Assembly: GCA_964016885.1 (NCBI GenBank)
Contig: OZ024751.1
Span: 19,220,001-19,284,000, forward strand
Length of the DNA stretch: 64,000 bases
Reading direction: 5' to 3'
From: Eledone cirrhosa
Lineage: Eukaryota
In this document: in pieces, positions 12,902-49,910 of the stretch
Layout: every line of letters begins with the position of its first letter
Numbering within the stretch: position 1 is the stretch's first letter
The notes under the pieces: generated by a model
Database searches by the model: none
Seen by the model: only the letters and a program-made list of their open reading frames with translations
What the model was told of the DNA's origin: nothing
Program-made: the position numbers and the translations under genes

Positions 12902-13094
12902 ATAGGAAAAAGTATGACCCCGACGGCAGAGCTCGAGGCGTTTCGACGGCTATTTCTGAACTAATAGCCGTCGAAACGGCTCGAGCTCTGCCGTCGGGGT
13001 TATACTTTTTCCTATTTCCCACTCTACTGCCCTAAGTATTGAGTACTCTGGTGCGTTATGGTCCATCTGGTTCCTTACCACCTGGTTCCTTTGT

Positions 13095-13096
<2 letters not shown>
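12902..13096 (+). mobile_element. Family B fold-back element in (TA)n
   Basis: Palindrome 12902-13015 with an 8-nt loop, followed by the tail ...agtattgagtactctggtgcgttatggtcca.ctggttccttacca...; TA runs on both sides. Confidence 0.85.
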
Positions 13097-13125
<29 letters not shown>

Positions 13126-26814: not shown

Positions 26815-26874
26815 TTCCATTTACCAGTGGTTTCTTAAAAGCAAAAAATGTTGCTTTCAATCATCAGAATGAAA
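26815..26874 (-). ncRNA. Type I hammerhead ribozyme (left arm of family C palindrome)
   Basis: Mirror image of 26956-27015. Confidence 0.8.
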
Positions 26875-26955
26875 AAAATCCTGGTCTATTTATTGATATT
26901 GGATTTTAAAATAAGTTTTTTTTTAAATCCAATATCAATAAATAGACCAGGATTT

Positions 26956-27015
26956 TTTCATTCTGATGATTGAAAGCAAAATTTTTTGCTTTTAAGAAAC
27001 CACTGGTAAATGGAA
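26956..27015 (+). ncRNA. Type I hammerhead ribozyme (right arm)
   Basis: TTTCATT-CTGATGA-TTGAAAGCAAAA-TT-TTTTGCTTTTAA-GAAA-CCA-C-TGG-TA-AATGGAA. Intact core and all three stems; predicted cleavage after GTA (27008). Confidence 0.85.
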
Positions 27016-27577: not shown

Positions 27578-27614
27578 TCTCCCGAATGAAACAGTTCTAG
27601 CCCTGTAGAAGCCA

Positions 27615-27617
<3 letters not shown>
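27578..27617 (+). mobile_element. Family A arm fragment
   Basis: cgaatgaaacagttctagccctgtagaagccatt. Confidence 0.7.
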
Positions 27618-27675
<58 letters not shown>

Positions 27676-27677
<2 letters not shown>

Positions 27678-27872
27678 CGGAGGAAATGTGGTAAGGAACC
27701 AGGTGGACCATAACGCACCAAAGTACTCAATACTTAGAGTAGTAGAGTGGGTAATAAGAACGAGTAGGACCCCGACGGCTGAGCTCAAGCCGTTTCGACG
27801 GCTAATTCTGGACTCCAGAATTAGCCGTCGAAACGGCTTGAGCTCAGCCGTCGGGGTCCTACTCGTTCCTAT
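27676..27872 (-). mobile_element. Family B fold-back element in (TA)n
   Basis: Perfect palindrome 27758-27868 centred on 27813, plus the unique tail 27676-27757. Confidence 0.9.
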
Positions 27873-29236: not shown

Positions 29237-29277
29237 CTCACCCAAATATTTATATATATATATATATATATATATAC

Positions 29278-29486
29278 GTAGGTCCCGGGTTGAGTCGGGG
29301 ATAACCACAGTAAGTAAGGTACTCAATACATGGCAGAGTAAAAATTTTTTATTCTTATTTTTTTTTAATTTTATAGAAGGAGCTTCTACAGGACTAGTAC
29401 TGTTTCATTCAGATGAAATCTTCAGGAGCTTCCTGAAGATTTCATCTGAATGAAACAGTACTAGTCCTGTAGAAGCTCCTTCTATA
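29278..29486 (-). mobile_element. Family A fold-back element in (TA)n
   Basis: Perfect palindrome 29372-29486 (56-bp arms, loop GCT) plus the terminus ggtcccgggttgagtcggggataaccacagtaagtaaggtactcaatacatggcagagta. Confidence 0.9.
29425..29479 (+). ncRNA. Type I hammerhead-like motif (family A)
   Basis: GGAGCTTC-CTGAAGA-TTTCATCTGAAT-GAAA-CAG-TACTAGTC-CTG-TA-GAAGCTCC. 8-bp stem I; T.T at the base of stem II. Confidence 0.75.
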
Positions 29487-29558
29487 TATATATATATATA
29501 TATATATACTCACCCAAATATTTATATATATATATACACTCACACAAAAATTTATATA

Positions 29559-46713: not shown

Positions 46714-46920
<207 letters not shown>

Positions 46921-48951: not shown

Positions 48952-49222
48952 GCCTGGTGTTGTTATTTCTCTGGGGAACTGGAATCATATATGATTCCAA
49001 TTCCTCAGAGAAATAACAACACATACCAGGAGCTGGACATATCGATGTATTGACGGAGTAAAACACACTTCAACAACATGTGTACCTGTCTTTTCCACAC
49101 CAATTCGGACTGCCTGAAGAGGTCACAGCCAATGATGGCTGTTACCGAAATATATATAGCAGTATATCTATAATTTATAATAAACGAAGCCAAATTTTAC
49201 ATATTTGACTTAATTATTTTAT
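48952..49222 (+). mobile_element. Family F element with a 5' inverted segment
   Basis: Palindrome 48957-49022, then an HHR, AATAAA and (TA)n. Confidence 0.85.
49109..49163 (+). ncRNA. Type I hammerhead ribozyme (family F)
   Basis: ACTGC-CTGAAGA-GGTCACAGCCA-ATGA-TGGCTGTTACC-GAAA-TATATATA-GCAGT. Canonical G-C pair at the base of stem II. Confidence 0.85.
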
Positions 49223-49640: not shown

Positions 49641-49819
49641 ATTCTGTTTACATTATTAGTTATCAAATTATTAATTAATTCAATAATTATTCATTTCAAA
49701 GAGTGACTAATCTTAACCTGCAATGCATGCAAAAGCAATGATAGGATTTTCAACCGACTATATGTATATGCATATGTGTGTGTGTGTTTGTGTGTGTGTG
49801 TGTATGTGTGTATGTGTGT

Positions 49820-49910
49820 ATCCCGAGTTCAATCGGGGGTAACCACAGTAAGGTACTCAATACATAGCAGTGTATACATATTCAATATAACCATTTCTAT
49901 ATTAAATATA

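Follow-up and report, generated by a model that had tools for sequence, protein, structure and literature searches.

Short palindromes in the Eledone cirrhosa genome as probable insertion products of a Penelope-like retrotransposon carrying a hammerhead motif

The window analysed here is a stretch of 64,000 nucleotides of Eledone cirrhosa DNA (assembly GCA_964016885.1, contig OZ024751.1, positions 19,220,001 to 19,284,000 of the forward strand). Near 29, 54 and 63 kb it carries three short palindromes, each made of a long tail-bearing arm and a short arm, both ending in (TA)n. As a previous reading of the sequence alone had reported, the two arms of each copy are nearly identical: they match over 54 nt without a difference at 29 kb (29374-29427 with 29431-29484), over 74 nt with 2 mismatches at 54 kb (53893-53966 with 53974-54047), and over 58 nt perfectly at 63 kb (63094-63151 with 63158-63215). 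That reading had also found the copies to be unlike one another, and the three palindromes are indeed only 74-91% alike. They belong to three young subfamilies of one family, here family A: A1 (29 kb), A2 (63 kb) and A3 (54 kb). Searches of the animal's own genome recover these, together with older subfamilies, as many dispersed copies.

At 29 kb, the tail-bearing arm (29277..29427, minus strand) runs from a hammerhead truncated inside stem I through an A-rich stretch to a tail of ~90 nt that ends at (TA)n. The tail-less arm (29426..29484, plus strand) opens with a G at 29426 that is not found in the parent sequence and is common to both arms, followed by an A at 29427, the putative +1. The insertion is flanked by a direct repeat on the plus strand (29237..29251 on the left, 29509..29523 on the right), either a minisatellite unit or possibly a target-site duplication, which would measure 50 nt with its TA runs. 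At 54 kb, the tail-bearing arm (53809..53966, minus) is cut short some 30 nt upstream of its hammerhead core. Its tail-less partner (53970..54051, plus) includes a TATAAATA box (53970..53977, plus) placed 29 nt upstream of the putative +1 (53999), and then a hammerhead (53999-54049) whose stem I contains a C.A mismatch. At 63 kb, the tail-bearing arm (63025..63157, minus) starts at the putative +1 (63157) and contains a complete hammerhead with an A-U variant of stem I, while the tail-less arm (63158..63215, plus) starts at the CTGA core. Three older remnants of family A complete the set: a rearranged copy (7690..7805, given no single strand) with its tail on the plus strand and the hammerhead 3′ half inverted, a fragment holding the hammerhead 3′ half (27578..27612, plus), and a tail fragment (49819..49889, minus).

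A second family, B, is found in the window at 54111-54341, 27617-27870 and 12902-13125, with the palindrome, one-sided tail and (TA)n setting of family A. Its tail shares the GTATTGAGTAC motif with family A, and it has an apparent hammerhead 3′ half (GAAA, a 5-bp stem III, a palindromic loop and GUC) without the CUGANGA core. Two further short palindromes (26873-26958 and 48957-49022) belong to neither family, and at 46777-46902 a (GAT)n array flips to (ATC)n at a central axis, as a microsatellite fold-back. A 247-aa frame at 2589-3332 appears to resemble the 3′ zinc-finger end of a non-LTR retrotransposon. A general repeat search of the window is dominated by (TA)n, in which the 3.0-Gb genome is rich.

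The plus arm of the A1 copy holds a type I hammerhead core (29427-29477), with a stem I of 6 bp, a stem II of 3 bp over a T.T, and a stem III of 4 bp closed by an 8-nt loop; the predicted cleavage site lies between 29471 and 29472. Stem I is also 6 bp long in untruncated copies, and the seventh pair (the G of GAGCTTC/GAGATTC) has no parent counterpart, the parent having C there. The sequence-only reading had proposed that stem I covaries. The change from C-G to A-U is real, but it is essentially a single event inherited by one subfamily: the A-U variant is present in 4 of 10 alignment rows, all from one lineage. As for the T.T at the base of stem II, it is found in 406 of 408 parsed cores (10.1/11.1), and it is not the atypical feature it had been taken for, since 14 of the 26 Hydra-clade Penelope-like rows in File S2 of Craig 2021 (PMC8557442) have it too. 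The near-palindromic stem III loop is TACTAGTC or TTCTAGTC in 380 of the 408 cores. Luense et al. are said to treat dimeric hammerhead variants of Penelope-like elements, and may describe the T.T variant.

Could the ribozyme then be a variant dimer, as first suggested? The palindrome itself cannot supply the dimer, because its two arms lie on opposite strands. Two A1 molecules cofold at -30.2 kcal/mol, against 2 x -9.9 kcal/mol for the monomers, with the hammerhead stems retained, whereas the cofold of A2 is not a hammerhead. Dimerisation through the stem III loop is thus plausible on folding grounds for A1 only. An Rfam scan returned no hammerhead among the best 150 of 360 rows, the top ones being hairpin and microsatellite matches below gathering scores. 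Subfamily A3 often has the C.A mismatch in stem I and has spread with it. Since the arms read through the predicted cleavage site, the template was uncleaved and cleavage is not needed for these insertions.

The element behind these copies can be recognised from longer loci. Almost certainly, the palindromes are made of the 3′ ends of a Penelope-like retrotransposon (PLE), truncated on their 5′ side and consisting of hammerhead and tail. One locus (L304) has an open frame of 754 aa with RW, DKT, YRDD, CxCx5C, CxxC and CxH motifs, in which the reverse transcriptase (YRDD) is followed by C-terminal endonuclease motifs of GIY-YIG type (YIG..T/CxxC). At the 5′ end of this locus stands an inverted copy lacking the tail, and at its 3′ end the hammerhead with the tail. 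Its ORF of about 2.2 kb is accompanied by a long AT-rich 3′ region with secondary insertions; Hydra-clade elements are shorter than 3 kb. In two other loci (L318, a tandem copy, and L331) the tail runs on into a short 5′UTR and the ATG of the ORF, forming a partial tandem of pseudo-LTR (pLTR) and ORF. The protein motifs suggest membership of the Hydra clade, with RWR in L304 and L331 where that clade has RWK. Atlas neighbours of the ORF stand at 0.96-0.99, some of them with GIY-YIG or RVT_1, and a Pfam search of three ORFs gave no usable match. Naiad and Chlamys elements, which have an N-terminal endonuclease and no canonical hammerhead, were ruled out, as the endonuclease motifs here are C-terminal and a hammerhead is present. 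A non-LTR retrozyme consists of direct tandem non-coding units; the copies here are dispersed and inverted, and their parent is coding.

A TA array lies within 32 nt of 265 of 282 tail ends. There are 1440 exact genome matches to one A1 30-mer, and 9 family A loci were counted in 60 evenly spaced 10-kb stretches (600 kb), which extrapolates, with a wide error, to roughly 45,000 genome-wide. Other Hydra-type ORFs of different families are nested in the same (TA)n arrays (L094, L112, L120, L288 and L318), and the genome holds many Hydra-type families. At L287, three tandem units of about 1.06 kb each contain an A1 palindromic insertion with its flanks, as a later segmental amplification.

Were the palindromes inherited as such, or built one by one? 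The sequence-only reading had favoured inversion at insertion, on the grounds that arms match while copies differ and that the axis lies at variable distances from CTGA. The distance does vary, the axis at 54 kb being 35 nt upstream, but those at 29 kb (4 nt) and 63 kb (3.5 nt) fall in the same hot spot. The check set beforehand was the distribution of axes among genome copies. In a set of 72 palindromes, not selected on their junction and purged of copies that junction queries had also found, there are 55 distinct junctions, 51 junctions being 20 nt or shorter. The axes are nevertheless not free: they pile up closely at the 5′ border of stem I, and some junctions recur. Both arms belong to the same subfamily in 154 of 156 cases, and a loop variant of A2 occurs on both arms 15 times and never on one alone, where 21.5 would be expected under independence. 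A CpG site in A3 is discordant between arms, as mutation after insertion would make it. Junction diversity and arm concordance make it very probable that the palindrome is made at insertion.

It might be argued instead that the palindromes are small non-autonomous elements in which every subfamily has one fixed axis and palindromic masters are copied whole. One A2 junction is indeed seen 23 times among 47 palindromes, most of them returned by a query biased towards it; several A1 junctions turn up 3-5 times. However, the 39 A1 palindromes have 27 distinct junctions, and the recurring A2 junction is found with either loop variant and next to short arms that end at different points, so that such masters are a very improbable source. 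Perfect palindromes are also a known artefact of long reads. Fold-back sequencing or assembly chimeras would mirror the flanks, which do so in only 4 of 148 insertions, and would not leave the tail on one side; arm-specific mutations increase with subfamily age, and related axes are spanned in contigs from three public runs, although these come from one sample that may be the assembly's own, which makes their independence uncertain. The chance that the palindromes are chimeras appears negligible. Direct repeats flank 8 of the 148 insertions, against 8 of 438 shuffled pairs, a weak signal; most target-site duplications cannot be made out inside (TA)n.

Of 156 palindromes, 154 carry the tail on one arm only, one on both arms and one on neither, a count in which tail-less pairs are under-sampled because most queries required one tail. 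The short arms end 3-22 nt past stem I, inside the A/T-rich stretch. Arm lengths can be very unequal: at L282, L286, L340 and L341 the tail arm stops inside the tail or the A-rich stretch and the short arm starts at +1. At L188, L205, L302, L303 and L320, the junction holds templated duplications of nearby element sequence, like scars of polymerase theta or template slippage. The near-perfect one-tail pattern and the variants shared between arms suggest one coordinated intermediate.

A single cDNA could in principle yield this pattern, if a tail-primed strand snapped back, primed itself, copied itself as far as the A/T-rich stretch and joined the other target end. Perfect concordance of the arms and a one-sided tail would follow, many axes do show short microhomologies, and self-priming has already been proposed for PLE junction palindromes (PMC3846280). 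It is the lengths of the arms that speak against it. In 43 of 134 short-junction palindromes (a figure including junction-selected sets; about 16 of the 72 unselected ones by eye), the tail-less arm retains more 5′ sequence than the tail arm. A tail-primed hairpin takes its loop from the tail arm and an inner-primed cDNA cannot make the tail, and therefore at least these 43 copies call for two cDNAs. Some junctions, moreover, have both arms complete with one base between them, which is too tight for a hairpin. Snap-back is thus decidedly unlikely as the general route, although it may be the source of a share of the copies; two cDNAs per palindrome are the likely rule, and both were probably copied from a single RNA template.

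What fixes the 5′ end of the arms? Hot-spot arms were taken as the first 100 of the 1440 exact matches to the A1 30-mer that starts at the A opening stem I, and compared with a clean parent. Among these arms containing +1, 41 of 100 end at +1 or -1, only 6 between -2 and -29, and 53 are long. Upstream, the TATAAATA box keeps its spacing (with 27-32 allowed in the search pattern): 29 in 55 of 55 A1 copies, 30 in 6 of 7 A2 copies and 29 in 20 of 21 A3 copies, the spacers themselves being different. At the ends, a G often stands at -1 that is absent from both parent and flank; in untruncated copies the A opening stem I is preceded by C. Counted by eye, the first 100 of 377 A/T-flanked ends include 44 with this G, 5 of the 44 being ambiguous and possibly derived from the other arm, against 2 in the first 100 of 404 at register +4 (Fisher p 1e-13). 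The other bases at -1 in the same 100 ends are C (23), T (26) and A (7). The 43 A1 ends with G comprise 33 in which one G follows an A or a T, 9 whose join runs through complementarity within stem I, and 1 other; for A2 and A3, the extents of 7-8 in the junction parse are inflated by one or two non-parent rows in the parent sets. The sequence-only reading missed the parent element, the one-sided tail, the TATA box and the extra G.

The position of the ends and their extra base would fit transcription starting at the stem I A and the G stemming from the RNA cap, a reading that the sequence pattern makes moderately probable. A second origin has to be weighed, in which the palindromes are still made at insertion but hot spot and G both come from the hammerhead. 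Once reverse transcription had finished the 5′ strand of stem I, the cDNA end would pair with the earlier 3′ strand copy of that stem, add one or more templated bases, and then be released or switch template, with no transcription start involved. The G does always extend stem I, adding one pair to it in each of the three A subfamilies; besides the 9 of 43 A1 ends, copies such as L212 and L349 are joined through stem I; and family B, without such a stem, has little G. Yet stem I templating predicts GG onward, and 33 of the 43 A1 ends stop after one base. Neither would it account for a TATAAATA spacing conserved across three different spacers, nor for the ends of family B, which also cluster about 29 nt below a TATA-like box. 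On this balance the hammerhead is an unlikely origin of the hot spot and the G. In the older subfamily A4, usable ends are too few to separate cap from stem I templating.

Family B offers a parallel of lesser sharpness. It was followed through 103 arms among the loci examined, with at least 2919 matches genome-wide. Its ends cluster 29 or 31 nt below the TATA-like box, scattered across some 15 nt. The extra G was not reproduced at the tested register (2 in the first 100 of the 2919 matches), a count diluted by parent-derived and slipped T runs.

Taken as a whole, the best explanation, and a reasonably probable one, is that the palindromes are stumps of a Hydra-type PLE, made at insertion from two cDNAs, both running off a sense RNA at its capped 5′ terminus, the RNA being uncleaved. 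The pseudo-LTR promoter would start transcription at the A that opens stem I, making the hammerhead the first ~50 nt of the RNA. The endonuclease would nick both strands of a (TA)n target; one target end would prime at the end of the tail (~+150), and the other in the A/T-rich sequence that immediately follows the hammerhead (~+55 to +75). Both cDNAs would then reach the cap, often gaining a C, and their 3′ ends would be joined by 0-6 nt of microhomology or by way of a few extra bases. The anchoring of ends at a start site, the G and the strict one-tail rule are a testable lead rather than a demonstrated mechanism. More tentatively, and short of an even chance, one capped uncleaved sense RNA, beginning with the nucleotide that opens the hammerhead, may have been primed twice, at the tail and at the inner site, from the two target strands, with both cDNAs copying the cap, so that the thousands of mini-palindromes would be fossils of a single asymmetric PLE intermediate. 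If true, this would account for the PLE hallmark of an inverted copy with one tail and argue against antisense self-priming, and the hammerhead would take on a new role, positioned so as to remove the cap from the RNA of its own element.

The anatomy of PLE insertions is already known (PMC3846280, PMC2377424, PMC4209133, PMC6765202, 10.64898/2026.07.22.740005), and by its sequence the element appears to be a new family in the known Hydra clade. An inverted 5′-truncated copy with a one-sided tail is typical of PLEs, and Craig 2021 (PMC8557442) names the formation of their inverted and tandem insertions as open; Arkhipova 2013 (PMC3846280) leaves the choice between sense and antisense templates undecided. 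No cap-G or twin-priming account for PLEs, nor start-site anchoring, the G or the strict one-tail rule, was found in the freely readable literature covered. The family offers thousands of young, nearly identical products with base-level junctions and, if every insertion builds its own palindrome, would preserve in the genome a trace of the way PLEs copy themselves. Should the start-site and cap reading hold, it would give in vivo support to a two-start-site chemistry known in vitro, and a substrate of about 150 nt for a direct test; should it fail, what is left is an ordinary new Hydra-type family.

Among described elements, those of the Hydra clade (Penelope-13_HM, Hydra-1_Obim; PMC8557442) come closest, sharing the reverse transcriptase with C-terminal endonuclease, the DKT, CxCx5C, CxxC and CxH motifs, a type I hammerhead with T.T near the 3′ end, (TA)n targets, and an inverted 5′-truncated copy at the 5′ end. 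Family A differs in RWR against RWK, in a stem III loop of 8 nt against 1-3 nt in the listed Hydra hammerheads, and in its mass-produced palindromes of ~200 nt anchored at one base, which do not figure in the part of that clade's description consulted. Canonical PLE insertions (PMC3846280; Schostak 2008, PMC2377424) have the same head-to-head junction, tail on one arm and promoter in the pLTR, for which a putative TATA and Inr are noted in Pen2a_Av, but their tail measures 30-40 nt against about 70-80 nt in family A. The D. virilis Penelope has a TATA-less internal promoter, unlike family A with its TATAAATA box. Where PMC3846280 reads junction palindromes as self-priming, possibly on antisense RNA, the G of family A favours a sense template with a cap. 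Dimeric PLE hammerheads and non-LTR retrozymes (PMC4209133; 10.64898/2026.07.22.740005) share the type I hammerhead and the palindromic stem III loop; retrozymes form direct tandem arrays, whereas family A is inverted, dispersed and tied to an autonomous ORF, with a stem III of 4 bp.

Two systems bear more directly on the mechanism. The PAc (Poseidon) protein nicks and extends both strands of AT-rich DNA in vitro, using uncleaved RNA and two internal start sites by which the tail is delimited (Frangieh et al. 2024, PMC11167929). It belongs to another clade, the putative start sites of family A abut TA microhomology with the target, and palindrome formation and the cap are not addressed in the part of that work covered. 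L1 twin priming (PMC11702581) likewise primes a second time from the opposite end of the target, shows microhomology where the inversion is joined, and has an extra G at ends reaching the 5′ terminus of the RNA; at full-length L1 junctions this G has been ascribed to the cap (PMC11702581, PMC4038843). L1 inversions, however, are made of non-overlapping parts of the RNA, whereas both arms of family A copy the same 50-70 nt.
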